From: Escherichia coli
GTDB taxonomy: Bacteria > Pseudomonadota > Gammaproteobacteria > Enterobacterales > Enterobacteriaceae
NCBI RefSeq assembly: GCF_003334335.1
Contig: NZ_QOWQ01000076.1
Length of the DNA: 5,578 nucleotides
Strand: one strand, 5' to 3'
A program made the translations under genes and the position numbers. Positions 1-5,481 of the stretch are shown here, piece after piece (within the stretch, counting starts at the first letter, position 1; each line of letters begins with the position of its first letter). The notes under the pieces were generated by a model, which saw nothing but the letters and a program-made list of their open reading frames with translations, was not told the origin of the DNA and searched no databases.

Positions 1-82
1 CTTTATTATCGAGTTCGGTGACCGCCTGGACGGCCACTTCTGAGAAAAGGTATTTACACAGAATCCTGAACAGGCTCCCGTA

Positions 83-118
83 AAGCGGCAACTTTATTGA
101 GTTGCCGCTTTTTTATTC
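83..118 (+). terminator. Rho-independent terminator-like hairpin in the intergenic region downstream of ycaK
   Basis: Inverted repeat AAGCGGCAACT (83-93) / AGTTGCCGCTT (100-110) with 6-nt loop TTATTG, followed on the + strand by a run of seven T then ATT (109-118). On the - strand the stem is followed by only TTTA, so it looks mainly like a terminator for a + strand gene entering from the left (pflA expected by synteny), possibly shared with ycaK. Confidence 0.6.
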
Positions 119-153: not shown

Positions 154-744
154 TTATAGTGCATCTACCATATCCCGTACCTGAGATAATAACGACTGAT
201 AATAGCTCGCGTGAAGTTCTTCCCCATCGAATACCACTGTATTACACAAGAAAGTGACATCGGCATCTTCAATACCAAGATAACTGCACATATTTTTTAA
301 ATAATCGCTTATATTTTTTTCCCAGCCCATCTGGACAAATGATTCTTTGTCTCCTCCAACCAGCGCCACCCAACGAACTTTATTGAATGGTAATTTGTGC
401 CCATCTCCATAAGCCAGCCCATTATTCCATACTCTGTCAATATATCCTTTTAGCATTGCCGGGAAGCTGTACCACCAGAGAGGAAAAACCACCACTAACG
501 TGTCATGTTCAAGCAGCTCTGAATAAAGCTGATGAACCTCTGGAGAATAACGTTTATCCATATTCTTCCAGTCTGGTTCATCTTCCGGCGTCATCACTGG
601 GTTGAAATTACGCCGATATAAATCGAGTTCCGTCACCTGTATTTTCCGCTCCATTGCCCGCTGATGGATCGCATCAGCAATATGTGCGGTCAATGAATCA
701 TGACGAGGATGGGCCCATACCAAATAAATACGTTCAGACTGCAT
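154..744 (-). CDS. ycaK: Flavodoxin-fold NAD(P)H dehydrogenase (quinone)-like oxidoreductase, 196 aa
   Basis: ORF of 196 codons, ATG at 744-742, TAA at 156-154. GGAGG Shine-Dalgarno (complement of 752-756) sits 8 nt upstream of the ATG. N-terminal RIYLVWAHPRHDS resembles the AHP motif of the KefF/KefG/MdaB flavodoxin-like quinone reductase family. Length and sequence agree with my recollection of E. coli YcaK; neighbours match the expected order. Confidence 0.88.
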   Translation of the reverse strand: MQSERIYLVWAHPRHDSLTAHIADAIHQRAMERKIQVTELDLYRRNFNPVMTPEDEPDWKNMDKRYSPEVHQLYSELLEHDTLVVVFPLWWYSFPAMLKGYIDRVWNNGLAYGDGHKLPFNKVRWVALVGGDKESFVQMGWEKNISDYLKNMCSYLGIEDADVTFLCNTVVFDGEELHASYYQSLLSQVRDMVDAL

Positions 745-843: not shown

Positions 844-1752
844 ATGCGGATGAATATGTCTGACTTTGCCACTTTCTTTGCCGTGGCCCGTAATCAAAGC
901 TTTCGTGCAGCGGGCGATGAGTTAGGCTTATCCTCGTCCGCCATTAGCCATAGTATTAAAACACTGGAACAACGTCTTAAAATTCGCTTATTCAATCGGA
1001 CAACCCGAAGCGTATCGTTAACGGAAGCGGGTTCTAATCTCTATGAACGATTGCGCCCAGCTTTCGACGAAATTCAGATCATGTTAGATGAGATGAATGA
1101 TTTTCGTCTGACACCGACAGGAACGCTCAAAATCAATGCCGCCCGGGTAGCTGCACGTATATTTTAAATGTCTTTACTGGTTGGTTTCACACGTGAATAT
1201 CCTGATATTAAAGTCGAGCTCACAACTGACGACTCTCTTGTCGATATCGTCCAACAGGGCTTTGACGCTGGCGTTCGACTTAGTTGCATCGTCGAAAAAG
1301 ATATGATCAGCGTGGCGATCGGCCCGCCAGTGAAATTATGTGTAGCAGCAACGCCAGAGTACTTTGCAAGATATGGCAAACCCCGCCATCCTCATGATCT
1401 GCTTAATCATCAATGTGTTGTTTTTCGTTATCCCAGCGGCAAACCTTTCCACTGGCAATTTGCAAAGGAGCTGGAAATTGCTGTCGCAGGAAATATCATT
1501 CTGGATGATGTTGATGCTGAACTGGAGGCCGTTTTGATGGGTGCTGGTATCGGGTATCTGCTCTATGAACAGATCAAGGAGTACCTTGATACTGGTCGTT
1601 TAGAATGTGTACTGGAAGACTGGAGCACAGAGCGTCCAGGCTTCCAGATCTATTATCCAAACCGCCAGTATATGTCCTGCGGCTTGCGCGCATTTCTCGA
1701 TTATGTAAAAACGGGTCAGATCTGCCAGAGTCAGCGTCACCGACCACAATAA
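844..1752 (+). pseudogene. ycaN: LysR-family transcriptional regulator interrupted by in-frame TAA at 1165-1167 (N-terminal HTH fragment 844-1167, effector-domain fragment 1168-1752)
   Basis: One reading frame from ATG 844 to TAA 1750-1752 spans 303 codons; codon 108 is TAA (1165-1167) and is followed immediately by ATG 1168 in the same frame. The 107-aa fragment carries a typical LysR winged-helix HTH (FRAAGDELGLSSSAISHSIKTLEQRLKIRLFNRTTR). The 194-aa fragment begins in the LysR linker/substrate-binding region (LLVGFTREYPDIKVEL). 107+1+194 = 302 codons, the size I recall for intact E. coli YcaN, so this is a point nonsense change rather than a frameshift. Confidence 0.75.
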
Positions 1753-3183
1753 TTATTTACTATTCGCTTTACGCGCCAGCAGCGGGAATATCAGTCCTAA
1801 TCCTACCAGCACAAACGGCGTTGCAACATTCAGCGCCAACTGGAAGGTCCACTCTGCAGTGAAGGCTTCCATTTTCGGGAAGATCCCCGTCAAACAGGCA
1901 AAGGCGGTAAAGGCAAAACACCAAATCCCGACGGTCATTGCCAGAGGCTTATTACGAATAAAGACATATTCTGGTTTATATTTCTGCGCCAAGCGAACGA
2001 CTGCAATAAATGCAACAAATACCCATAAATAACGCAGCGGCATCACTACCGAATTAAGGTTCAACAGCCATTTATAGAGATTGTTCATATCACCAATGCC
2101 GAGAGTCGGCAGCATAATCAGAATCGCCACCAGTACCAGGGTCAGAAAATAGCCATTAACGGGCGTACCAGAAGCGTTGGTACGACATAAACTGGCTGGA
2201 ATATATTTGCTGTCAGCATCACCTAATAGCACTTTAAGCGGGGCATCAATCGAGAATACCAGCGCCGCTACTTGTCCCAGGGTATTCGCAATGGCGTAAA
2301 TCACCATTAAAGTATTACCCATGTTGTAATACTCGCCCAGCTTCTGAAAGGCGTAATACTGACCGTTGGTCATTAAGTCATCCGGGATATTACGCGAATC
2401 AAACATCATCCCCATCGCCAGCGAGCCCAGAATGGCACAAACCGCAACCATCACCGCCAGGCATAACATCCCTTTTGGAAATTCTTTTCCTGGGTTGCGC
2501 GTTTGATTAACGTAAGGAGAAATCTTCTCTGCTCCGCCAACCGCGAAAACCAGCATTGAAATAGTGGTAATGTAGGTAAAGTCGATATGAGGAATGAACG
2601 TTTCCCAGGTAATGTTTGTGGTCGCAATATGCACTTCAGTAATTGCAGGCGCGGTTACCGCCATCGCCACATACAGGAGCGACATAACAAACATAGCAAT
2701 CCCTGCCACAGAACCGACGATTTTCAGCGATTTCATACCGCGTGAAGCAACCCACATAAAGAAGATAAACAGCACCAGCGTTAACCCCTGTAACGCTACG
2801 ACTGAATATTCTTTGATTAGCGAACCGTCGCCTTTCATCGCCCAACCGAGCGCAATCAGAATTGCCTGGGGTTTTTGTGCCAGATAGGGAATATGCACCA
2901 CCCAGTAGGTCCACGCGGCGAGATAAGCCAGTCCGGGTCCCATCGTGTGTTTAATCCAGGTACTGACCCCGCCCTTCCCATCTTTGAAGGTCGAGCCTAA
3001 CTGACCAACAATTAGCGCATAAGGTGTGAAATAGAGTGCAAAGATAAACACCCATGAAAAAACAACCACCAGCCCCTGGTTGGCATAGTTATTAACAACG
3101 TTGCCAAAACCCCAGACAGTGATAAAAGACATCAGCGCAATGTTGTACCATCGCAACTGTTTTTCCTGAACATTCCCAGCCAT
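1753..3183 (-). CDS. ycaM: Putative APC-superfamily permease (amino acid/organocation transporter-like), 476 aa
   Basis: The long - strand ORF ends with TAA at 1755-1753. The biological start is taken as ATG 3183-3181 (MAGNVQEKQLRWYNIAL...), which has AAGGA 9 nt upstream and gives 476 aa, the length I recall for YcaM. The protein is highly hydrophobic with multiple predicted TM segments. The ORF-track start at 3375 is a GTG inside the ycaD terminator stem and is rejected. Confidence 0.85.
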   Translation of the reverse strand: MAGNVQEKQLRWYNIALMSFITVWGFGNVVNNYANQGLVVVFSWVFIFALYFTPYALIVGQLGSTFKDGKGGVSTWIKHTMGPGLAYLAAWTYWVVHIPYLAQKPQAILIALGWAMKGDGSLIKEYSVVALQGLTLVLFIFFMWVASRGMKSLKIVGSVAGIAMFVMSLLYVAMAVTAPAITEVHIATTNITWETFIPHIDFTYITTISMLVFAVGGAEKISPYVNQTRNPGKEFPKGMLCLAVMVAVCAILGSLAMGMMFDSRNIPDDLMTNGQYYAFQKLGEYYNMGNTLMVIYAIANTLGQVAALVFSIDAPLKVLLGDADSKYIPASLCRTNASGTPVNGYFLTLVLVAILIMLPTLGIGDMNNLYKWLLNLNSVVMPLRYLWVFVAFIAVVRLAQKYKPEYVFIRNKPLAMTVGIWCFAFTAFACLTGIFPKMEAFTAEWTFQLALNVATPFVLVGLGLIFPLLARKANSK

Positions 3184-3267: not shown

Positions 3268-3305
3268 TGCAAAATTATAACCTGCTGCACATTTTATTTT
3301 TAAAC
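3268..3305 (-). promoter_or_regulatory. Candidate sigma70 promoter for ycaM
   Basis: Perfect TATAAT on the - strand (complement of 3274-3279) about 90 nt upstream of ycaM ATG, with an AT-rich upstream region (3291-3305) but no good -35 hexamer. Located downstream of the ycaD terminator, so ycaM is probably transcribed independently. Confidence 0.3.
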
Positions 3306-3340: not shown

Positions 3341-3384
3341 AAACAAAAAAGCAGAGTGTGAAACAGTAAGTTCACACTCTGCTT
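3341..3384 (-). terminator. Rho-independent terminator of ycaD
   Basis: Perfect 14-bp inverted repeat AAGCAGAGTGTGAA (3349-3362) / TTCACACTCTGCTT (3371-3384) with 8-nt loop. On the - strand the stem is followed by TTTTTTGTTT (complement of 3341-3350). It starts 9 nt after the ycaD stop codon (3393-3395). Confidence 0.8.
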
Positions 3385-3392
3385 GAATTCAT

Positions 3393-4541
3393 TTACACGT
3401 GAGCAACGGGTTTCGGCGTATGACCGGCGTTGCGCAGCAGCATCAGCAAATAGATAAACGATACGCTGGCGATCATGATAAACAATAAATTATCGGAGAA
3501 ATTCTGCATTAGCATAGCGGTAAATGACGGGCCAAGCAGACTTCCCACAGTATAGCTCAACAGTAAGGCCTGGTTCATCGCCACCAGTTGATGATGTTCA
3601 ACTTTCTCGCAAGCCCATGCCATCGCCACCGGATATAGCGTAAAGCCAGCGGCACCGAGGATGAATAACGCTGGGGCCATCGCCGCCTGGCTAAGCATCG
3701 CGATACTGCCGAGAATGACGACAAAGACCTGAACACGCAACACCAGCAGTCGACCAAACTTATCCGCCAGACGTCCAATCGGCCATTGTCCAAGGATACC
3801 CGCACTGACCAGTACCGCCATCCAGAAACCAATGCTGGCATTGCTCACCCCTTTGTGATTGAGGTACAGCGGCATCAGGCCATATAGAGATCCCAGAACG
3901 ATTCCTGAGATAATGCAGCCATTCACGCCAAGCCGCGCCTGACGGAGTTTTAGCATTGACGTAATTGACGTCGAATCATGGTTTTCAGCCTGCTGATTCA
4001 GCACACGCGTAAACAACAGCGGTAAGATCCCTGCCAACGTCAAACCTGTAACCCACGGCAATACGGACATCAGCTCGGTTGAAACTTTGCTGACCAGTAA
4101 CTGGCCTAAAAACGTTCCCACGTAATAAACCATCATATACGCAGCAAGCAAACGCCCACGGTTACGTGACGTCCCACTGCACATCAGCGCGCTCTCAACA
4201 ACCACCCAAATCATGGCACAGCCGACGCCCGCGACAAAACGCCAAGCCAACCAGCTCCAGAATCCAATCATCAGGCCAAGGCCGGCACAGCCAGCGGCAA
4301 AAATGAAGGAGGCCAGATAATAGCTGCGGTTAAAGCCAATGCGCTTAATGACATACCCTGTCAGCAATGTACCGACAAGGTTGCCGGTAAAATAGGATGA
4401 GCTGACAACGCCTACCTGCCATGTGGACATGTGTTCCTGGGCGAGCCAAAGCGGCACGAGTGTATTTAACACCGCAATCGCCAGAGTCAACAAAAGCAGG
4501 CCAGACAGCAAAAGCATGACAGGCTGGGTATACGTGGACAT
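3393..4541 (-). CDS. ycaD: Major facilitator superfamily transporter, 382 aa
   Basis: ORF of 382 codons, ATG 4541-4539, TAA 3395-3393. Contains the MFS signature motif A between predicted TM2 and TM3 ([13 protein letters not shown]) and about 12 hydrophobic segments. Length and sequence match my recollection of E. coli YcaD. The Shine-Dalgarno is weak: no GGAGG-like element in the 15 nt before the ATG. Confidence 0.9.
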
Positions 4542-4854
4542 GAATTAAAACCGTGAGGAAGTTCAAATTTCATGCGCATCATGCCACCGCCAAAAACATT
4601 GTCAATGGGTGAAAATACGCGATATCCCAGCGGCGGTATTATCGATTAATATTACTCATTCATAACGCTAATGCTGAAGAGATGATTAGTCTCATCTGAT
4701 TGTTTTTATTGAACTAACACAAATTTCATACGCTTCGTTCAGTCGAAAAATTTCATGGTCACAGCAAACTCATATTTCCCGTCTATGCTTTCAGAGCAAT
4801 GCATCGCGTCTGATCGATTTCAGACGTACCACTGACTCTCGAAAGGAGAAGAGG
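4542..4854. promoter_or_regulatory. 313-bp divergent ycaD/ycaC control region
   Basis: AT-rich non-coding spacer between divergent start codons. TTGTCAA at 4599-4605 gives a perfect -35 TTGACA on the - strand (complement of 4600-4605) for ycaD, with a weak -10 CATGAT 16 nt downstream. AAATTTCAT occurs three times (4565-4573, 4721-4729, 4748-4756). Strong AGGAG RBS 5-9 nt before ycaC ATG 4855. No convincing ycaC -10/-35 pair was found by eye. Confidence 0.35.
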
Positions 4855-5481
4855 ATGACCAAACCGTATGTTCGTCTTGATAAAAATGATGCTGCCGTTT
4901 TGCTTGTTGATCACCAGGCTGGTTTACTTTCCCTTGTACGGGATATCGAACCCGATAAGTTTAAAAATAACGTGCTGGCGCTGGGTGACCTGGCTAAGTA
5001 TTTCAACTTACCAACTATTCTTACCACCAGTTTTGAAACCGGTCCTAACGGCCCATTAGTTCCAGAACTGAAAGCACAATTCCCCGATACACCTTACATT
5101 GCTCGCCCGGGAAATATTAACGCCTGGGATAACGAAGATTTTGTAAAAGCTGTCAAAGCGACAGGTAAAAAACAGTTAATTATTGCCGGTGTGGTAACCG
5201 AAGTTTGCGTGGCATTCCCGGCGCTTTCAGCCATTGAAGAAGGGTTTGACGTCTTTGTCGTGACTGACGCGTCAGGGACCTTTAATGAAATTACCCGGCA
5301 TTCGGCATGGGATCGCTTGTCGCAAGCTGGTGCGCAATTGATGACATGGTTCGGCGTGGCGTGCGAGCTGCATCGCGACTGGCGTAATGATATTGAAGGA
5401 CTGGCGACGTTGTTCTCTAACCACATTCCTGATTATCGTAATTTGATGACCAGTTATGACACGTTAACGAAGCAGAAATAA
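4855..5481 (+). CDS. ycaC: Isochorismatase-family (cysteine hydrolase) protein, 208 aa
   Basis: ORF of 208 codons with AGGAG Shine-Dalgarno, ATG 4855, TAA 5479-5481. Carries the isochorismatase-family signature: LLVDHQ with the catalytic Asp at residue 19, and a Cys in VVTEVCVAFPA consistent with the catalytic Cys of the Asp-Lys-Cys triad. Length and sequence match my recollection of E. coli YcaC. Confidence 0.9.
   Translation: MTKPYVRLDKNDAAVLLVDHQAGLLSLVRDIEPDKFKNNVLALGDLAKYFNLPTILTTSFETGPNGPLVPELKAQFPDTPYIARPGNINAWDNEDFVKAVKATGKKQLIIAGVVTEVCVAFPALSAIEEGFDVFVVTDASGTFNEITRHSAWDRLSQAGAQLMTWFGVACELHRDWRNDIEGLATLFSNHIPDYRNLMTSYDTLTKQK

Follow-up and report, generated by a model that had tools for sequence, protein, structure and literature searches.

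The window analysed here, a stretch of 5,578 nt, is part of the E. coli chromosome and harbors the genes ycaK, ycaN, ycaM, ycaD and ycaC in this order. Between positions 77 and 5578 it differs from the sequence of strain ML35 at two positions only, 1166 and 4648. The oxidoreductase gene ycaK and the LysR-type regulator gene ycaN diverge from a spacer of 99 nt (745-843), while ycaN and the permease gene ycaM converge. Homologues of YcaN contain the Pfam domains HTH_1 and LysR_substrate, and the end of YcaM is conserved at 476 aa across Escherichia. The coordinates of all features discussed are collected in Table 1.

Table 1. Genes and sequence features in and around the ycaN/ycaM junction. Positions are those of the window; a dot marks a feature assigned to neither strand in particular.
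Feature	Position	Strand	Basis
ycaK, NAD(P)H oxidoreductase, divergent from ycaN	154-744	-	ORFs, annotation, synteny
ycaN, LysR-type regulator gene, 302 codons, pseudogene in the window	844-1752	+	ORFs, internal stop
Premature TAA, codon 108 of ycaN (TTA Leu108 to TAA, T-to-A at 1166)	1165-1167	+	Comparison with ML35
C-rich, G-poor stretch within ycaN past the premature stop, C/G 2.27	1376-1453	+	Composition
C-rich, G-poor (rut-like) stretch in ycaM read-through RNA	1467-1648	-	Base composition
36-nt imperfect palindrome in ycaN, dG about −20 kcal/mol on either strand	1612-1647	.	Folding
Weak terminator-like element, ycaM-sense, inside the last 13 ycaN codons	1707-1745	-	Lenient scan, folding
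TAA closing the ycaN reading frame	1750-1752	+	Sequence, ORF list, K-12 annotation
ycaM stop TAA (TTA on the + strand)	1753-1755	-	Sequence, ORFs, ML35 and K-12 annotation
Start of the ycaN read-through RNA (78 nt, antisense to ycaM), C/G 1.57, moderately Rho-favourable	1753-1830	+	
ycaM, APC-family permease, 476 aa	1753-3183	-	ORFs, annotation, orthologues
ycaD intrinsic terminator, 14-bp perfect hairpin and T-tract	3349-3384	-	Scan, published Term-seq
ycaD	3393-4541	-	ORFs, annotation
ycaC	4855-5481	+	ORFs, annotation

The difference from ML35 at position 1166 falls into ycaN. The codon of Leu108, which is TTA in ML35 as well as in K-12, is TAA in the window, and in the list of open reading frames the ycaN frame is accordingly split into 844-1167 and 1168-1752. 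A search of 5426 complete E. coli genomes with a 41-mer centred on the change detected the same allele in 34 of them, and RefSeq labels ycaN carrying it as a pseudogene with the remark 'internal stop'. Since the in-frame stop interrupts an otherwise conserved full-length ORF, the ycaN of this strain is a nonsense pseudogene, which corrects the sequence-only reading of the locus. The premature stop is situated 585 nt short of the junction with ycaM. It is directly followed by an ATG (1168-1170, Met109), upstream of which no Shine-Dalgarno sequence is seen; re-initiation at Met109 is conceivable and would yield a 194-aa fragment comprising the effector domain.

At the junction itself, the hexamer TAATTA (1750-1755), read directly from the sequence, accommodates the stop codons of both frames without any spacer. 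The abutment of the two stops had been claimed from the sequence and agrees with the annotation of ML35, where the junction is identical to the K-12 arrangement, and with RefSeq K-12, in which ycaM occupies 947229-948659 (+) and ycaN 948660-949568 (-), likewise with a spacer of zero; in the present strain, however, position 1752 is not the end of a full-length translated ycaN. The two coding sequences share no base, one frame ending at 1752 and the other at 1753, and are thus touching rather than overlapping genes. Being adjacent, on opposite strands and tail to tail, they show the geometry of a convergent excludon. As TAATTA is palindromic across both stops, each stop codon is immediately followed by T (U in the RNA). 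In E. coli, UAAU is an efficient stop context.

Of the 5426 complete genomes, 4023 contain the exact core of the junction and 4355 its surrounding region of 126 nt. Among the 1071 genomes without the junction, alleles of the L005 and L021 types explain almost none; in one example ycaM is frameshifted and unrelated DNA follows it. The zero spacer is not new, as it forms part of the standard K-12 annotation. Given that Huvet and Stumpf (PMC4161906) counted 75 convergent pairs with overlapping coding sequences in the reference genome of E. coli, abutting stops are not beyond chance and represent an ordinary arrangement.

A strict scan found no intrinsic terminator near the junction, in agreement with the earlier statement that no obvious terminator hairpin is located just inside either 3' end. 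This statement needs a qualification on the ycaM-sense strand, where a weak hairpin plus U5 is located at 1745-1707 past the ycaM stop. The + strand RNA across the junction folds no better than shuffled sequences (z = −0.34), while the - strand (ycaM-sense) RNA forms two hairpins (z = −2.3 over 201 nt). A bidirectional intrinsic terminator, which would consist of a G+C-rich stem-loop with an A-tract on one side and a U-tract on the other, is thus absent between the stops, as judged from the 0-nt spacer, the empty strict scan and the z-score of the + strand.

The hairpin 1745-1714 is branched, with a 6-bp outer stem, a large interior and a dG of about −10 to −11 kcal/mol, and is followed by CG and then by U5 at 1711-1707, so that hairpin and U-tract together are positioned 8-46 nt past the ycaM stop. 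Its stability does not exceed that of shuffled sequence (z = −0.7), and the lenient scan returns comparable chance matches all along ycaM. Comparison of five Escherichia alleles revealed no covariation, as double-sided changes are absent and the percentage of paired positions is not above that of shuffles. The U-tract and the outer stem are retained in four of these five alleles. In Escherichia sp. E1V33, which is devoid of ycaN, the U-tract is preceded by a stronger hairpin with an 11-bp stem (−14.9 kcal/mol); a convincing hairpin at this place is absent from E. albertii. Hairpin 1745-1714 with U5 may be regarded as a weak and unproven terminator candidate, and termination of ycaM transcripts by this element would be leaky at best.

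Deeper in ycaN, 106-141 nt past the ycaM stop, lies the palindrome 1612-1647; in the ycaM-sense RNA no U-tract follows it. From the junction up to ycaD, the sole strong hairpin is the ycaD terminator itself, for which Adams et al. report a Term-seq 3' end at K-12 position 947069 (PMC7815308), corresponding to position 3343 of the window and thus just past the hairpin 3384-3349. An Rfam scan of the window (E <= 1) detected nothing at the junction and two sub-threshold chance matches elsewhere. A promoter-like site at 1728-1700 (-) was rejected, as its score of 9/12 is level with many chance matches.

Untranslated read-through and antisense RNA in E. coli is subject to Rho-dependent termination, nonsense polarity included. 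The potential for such termination was assessed by a composition heuristic, namely an untranslated stretch of ~80 nt that precedes the release sites and is rich in C and poor in G, and stretches of this kind are found downstream of both genes. In the ycaM read-through RNA the C-rich stretch 1648-1467 (-) extends from 105 to 286 nt past the ycaM stop, and its segment 1544-1467 (-) reaches a C/G ratio of 2.45, which places it in the top 1% of all 78-nt windows on both strands of the 5.6-kb region. In the ycaN read-through RNA the segment directly past the junction (Table 1) is followed by a stronger stretch at 2351-2480 (+) with C/G ratios of 2.0-2.3, the segment 2403-2480 having a ratio of 2.31. 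In addition, the stretch 1376-1453 within ycaN is a candidate Rho polarity site for the codon-108 allele. With Rho-dependent termination the locus shares untranslated RNA past each stop as well as C-rich, G-poor stretches, and the premature ycaN stop provides a classic setting for nonsense polarity, the Rho dependence being deduced here from composition. On the basis of base composition, Rho-dependent 3' ends within the partner gene appear to be the most plausible mechanism. As ycaN translation ends 585 nt before the junction, Rho polarity should cut the ycaN-derived read-through in this strain.

In the absence of a spacer and of a strong terminator, complete mRNAs of both genes must reach into the partner gene. 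The mutual antisense run-on proposed earlier on these grounds is corroborated by published data, since Table 1 of the ExcludonFinder paper (NAR 2025, PMC12288877) contains ycaM-ycaN among 165 convergent excludons of MG1655, based on 58 strand-specific MG1655 RNA-seq samples and detection in at least 50% of them. For K-12, the overlap of the two transcripts has thus been published before. The table entry documents overlap and is silent on its extent and mechanism, and the authors of the map state that read-through overlap may be noise. In the accessible Term-seq tables of Adams et al. (PMC7815308) no 3' end is given between K-12 positions 948,500 and 949,099, which comprise the 3' part of ycaM and ycaN; the missing discrete end is compatible with low expression or with diffuse ends of the Rho type. 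The SMRT-Cappable-seq supplements contain no entry for the locus. In RNA-seq of a ycaN mutant, ycaC, ycaD and focA are the neighbours named as affected, and ycaM is not named (PMC9068703).

In order to place the junction in its evolutionary context, YcaM was scanned in one genome per species, resulting in 41 loci. In several Citrobacter, Kluyvera and Yokenella genomes ycaN is missing, and ycaM and pflA face each other tail to tail across a short spacer that contains a single G+C-rich hairpin. Other YcaM loci, including that of Salmonella arizonae, have a wider gap between ycaM and pflA. Conversely, in Pseudocitrobacter and Shimwellia ycaM is absent and ycaK-ycaN is located between pflA and ycaD; here, ycaN overlaps ycaD by 28 nt in Pseudocitrobacter and is separated from its convergent neighbour by a gap of 39 nt in Shimwellia. 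In Hafnia the ycaK-ycaN pair is located elsewhere in the genome. Adjacency of ycaM and ycaN was met only in E. coli, and the distance of ycaN to its convergent neighbour thus runs from −28 nt (Pseudocitrobacter) via 0 (E. coli) to +39 nt (Shimwellia). What is conserved in E. coli, Pseudocitrobacter, Shimwellia and Hafnia is the head-to-head neighbourhood of ycaK and ycaN. The ycaK-ycaN pair, with the layout typical of a LysR regulator and its divergently transcribed target, is thus the conserved unit, and ycaM is outside this unit.

YcaN orthologues match each other up to the motif '...RAFLDYVK' and then vary in length and sequence of the tail. Within Escherichia, conservation of the locus is lowest in the last 41 nt of ycaN, which adjoin the ycaM stop and show 59-68% identity as compared to 82-96% elsewhere. 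The 62 nt at 1650-1711 were initially regarded as specially conserved, being 93% identical in ycaN-deleted E. albertii as compared to 45% at the four-fold sites of ycaM; this was dropped, as other intergenic regions of the locus are equally 82-96% identical.

The regulator gene has also been lost in nature. In O157:H7, ycaK and most of ycaN are deleted, and a 111-nt remnant annotated in RefSeq as 'missing N-terminus' abuts ycaM. A similar ycaK-ycaN deletion is found in E. albertii and in three other Escherichia lineages, including cryptic clades, and many E. coli are without ycaN yet possess ycaM. At least two deletion breakpoints can be distinguished, 158|1596 and 169|1650, the joints of O157 and E. 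albertii being nearby. One side of the breakpoints adjoins the ycaK stop and the other is located around the palindrome 1612-1647, with short repeats (ATCTA...TATCC) at the joints. In every natural ycaK-ycaN deletion seen, the 3' end of ycaN beside ycaM survives over at least 100 nt, a retention that could be due to selection for ycaM 3'-end signals or to a mutational hotspot. With an adjacency of ycaM and ycaN that is recent, variable and dispensable, a designed coupling of regulator and permease is disfavoured.

Taken together, the junction is probably an ordinary case of compact tail-to-tail packing, neutral and with an incidental overlap of the 3' ends, rather than a dedicated regulatory device. 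The tail of YcaN past '...RAFLDYVK' would be unconstrained, and its stop codon would have drifted up against that of ycaM. Lacking a spacer and a good intrinsic terminator, both mRNAs would have their 3' ends inside the partner gene and overlap, as published for K-12. Transcripts of ycaM would pass the leaky hairpin with U5 and may then be stopped by Rho 105-290 nt into antisense ycaN. Those of ycaN, for which no hairpin with a U-tract is available, may be ended by Rho on RNA antisense to ycaM with an excess of C over G, and collisions of RNA polymerases may contribute to these ends. In the strain of the window ycaN mRNA would be mostly untranslated and open to Rho before the junction is reached; the overlap left would therefore consist chiefly of ycaM read-through into a dead gene. 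Against neutrality count the retention of at least 100 nt in all deletions, which could make the overlap functional, and the better 11-bp stem of Escherichia sp. E1V33, a strain that has lost ycaN.

The presence of the pair in the MG1655 excludome, with detection in at least 50% of the 58 samples (PMC12288877, Table 1), and the lack of both spacer and strong terminator are also what would be expected of a functional excludon, in which convergent transcription would render YcaN and YcaM mutually exclusive, either via transcriptional interference or because RNase III cleaves the duplex of the two 3' ends. Such a device appears improbable, as the genes are neighbours in E. coli only, ycaN keeps ycaK rather than ycaM across genera, and ycaM stays intact where ycaN is deleted (O157:H7, other Escherichia) or carries a nonsense codon, as here. 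Furthermore, ycaM is unreported as affected in the ycaN-mutant RNA-seq (PMC9068703), and noise is conceded by the authors of the map as a possible source of read-through overlap (PMC12288877). For the same reasons, namely the partnership of ycaN with ycaK, the restriction of the adjacency to E. coli, the loss of ycaN with ycaM kept and the RNA-seq of the mutant, the regulator-permease coupling considered in the sequence-only reading is unsupported. That the abutment is only apparent, one of the stops not being the real end of a translated gene, could be argued from the internal stop, owing to which ycaN is not translated to 1752 as one protein in the window. Such an annotation artefact is nevertheless very hard to reconcile with a 302-codon ycaN frame that is open in most E. 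coli and matches LysR orthologues over its whole length, as far as '...FLDYVK' with a short tail added, and with the constant end of ycaM at 476 aa across Escherichia.

It is unlikely, if worth considering, that the last ~100 nt of ycaN are kept in the deletions as a 3'-end signal of ycaM, which would act as a weak terminator or, as a 3' UTR, stabilise the mRNA. In its more specific form, in which the last ~45-100 nt of ycaN would be under selection because they serve ycaM as 3' UTR and intrinsic terminator (1745-1714 plus U5), this would explain why the stretch survives whenever ycaN is deleted, at least two distinct breakpoints, 158|1596 and 169|1650, sparing it. The position of hairpin and U-tract 8-46 nt past the ycaM stop, the retention of U-tract and outer stem in all but one of the five Escherichia alleles and the 11-bp stem of E1V33 (−14.9 kcal/mol) point in the same direction. 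However, covariation is absent and pairing is not above shuffles, the E. coli hairpin has a z-score of only −0.7 with comparable chance matches throughout ycaM, and no part of the locus evolves faster than the hairpin region, E. albertii being without a convincing hairpin. The clustering of the breakpoints at the palindrome 1612-1647 and at short repeats suggests a mutational hotspot over selection, and the accessible Term-seq tables report no 3' end there (PMC7815308). An embedded terminator of this kind is accordingly doubtful. If it existed, the tail of a dead gene would persist as the terminator of its neighbour, and in intact strains the ycaM terminator would double as YcaN codons on the other strand, a neat but small case of dual-use sequence.

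Under the preferred reading of neutral packing the significance of the junction is small, as the abutting stops are annotated and the transcript overlap is listed (PMC12288877, Table 1); what is added here is a modest hypothesis on where ycaM transcripts end. Similarities to known systems are partial. With the convergent excludons, in whose list ycaM-ycaN itself appears (PMC12288877), the pair shares convergence and the missing terminator in between. The functional hallmark of excludons, however, is mutually exclusive expression or processing by RNase III, whereas ycaM-ycaN is known by its listed overlap, and one partner, ycaN, is a pseudogene in the window. With overlapping convergent coding sequences (PMC4161906) it shares tail-to-tail packing, probably by drift of stop codons; ycaN of Pseudocitrobacter with its 28-nt overlap fits this class, whereas the E. 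coli pair touches with an overlap of 0 nt. Convergent transcription into a common 3' region is also the setting of bidirectional intrinsic terminators with programmed RNA polymerase collisions (bioRxiv 10.1101/2022.10.23.513370). In contrast to the ycaN/ycaM junction, which has none, that mechanism requires a stem-loop between the gene boundaries. Collisions could nevertheless add to termination at the junction. An arrangement of the bidirectional-terminator type is found instead in Citrobacter, Kluyvera and Yokenella, where a single hairpin is positioned between ycaM and pflA.

The regulator gene ycaN of the window is a pseudogene, because a T-to-A exchange at position 1166 creates an in-frame TAA at 1165–1167. 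The same internal-stop allele is found in 34 of the 5426 complete E. coli genomes surveyed, which originate from pigs, cattle, humans and birds. Since an ATG follows the premature stop codon directly, a 194-residue effector-domain fragment of YcaN might still be produced.

In O157:H7, E. albertii and cryptic Escherichia lineages the locus has been reduced by natural deletions, which have removed ycaK together with most of ycaN, so that the last 103–157 nt of ycaN remain, directly adjoining ycaM. The deletion breakpoints cluster at the ycaK stop codon (window 158–169) and around a 36-nt imperfect palindrome (window 1596–1650), for which a fold of about −20 kcal/mol is predicted on either strand. 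The palindrome may be a deletion hotspot. Alternatively, it may mark the limit of 3′ exonuclease trimming of read-through RNA from ycaM.

Coordinates of the features described (homologous loci in their own numbering)
Feature	Position	Remark
ycaK-ycaN deletion, O157:H7 (L046)	2355-2563	
ycaK-ycaN deletion, loci L004-L007	about 4430-4650	
36-nt imperfect palindrome LEDWSTERPGFQ	window 1612-1647	within ycaN coding sequence
Perfect 14-bp hairpin	window 3349-3384	between ycaD and ycaM
Promoter-like site for ycaM	window 3303-3274	
pflA/ycaK terminator hairpin	window 82-111	

The ycaM/ycaN junction region is unmatched in about one fifth of the complete E. coli genomes (approximately 1070, plus L049, the locus of strain SCU-172), and the stretch that lies downstream of ycaM seems to vary between E. 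coli genomes. In SCU-172, one example lacking the junction, ycaM is frameshifted, and unrelated DNA and a gene for an EAL-domain protein come after it.

At the opposite end of ycaM, a published Term-seq 3′ end (K-12 position 947069, corresponding to window 3343; PMC7815308) lies inside the T-tract of the 14-bp hairpin. It is thus likely that ycaD and ycaM are transcribed as separate units, and at 3303–3274 there is a promoter-like site from which ycaM could be expressed.

Both edges of the window point to mobile elements. Residues 1–76 differ from the pflA side of other E. coli and match the end of an IS1414 (IS256-family) element, with identity as high as 100% across 80 nt; this exact junction beside the pflA/ycaK terminator hairpin is absent from complete RefSeq genomes. 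Residues 5504–5578 diverge from strain ECCTRSRTH03, where ycaC is followed by dmsC, and agree with strain ML35, which carries an IS421 (IS4-family) element between these two genes. On this basis, IS elements flank the ycaK-ycaC block on either side in the genome of the window.

At position 4648, between ycaD and ycaC, the window has A where both ML35 and ECCTRSRTH03 have T; this single-base difference lies upstream of a promoter-like site at 4605–4578. A YcaM fragment 99% identical to that of E. coli, found on a low-coverage 396-nt contig of Corallococcus aberystwythensis (L044), almost certainly represents E. coli contamination of this myxobacterial assembly.
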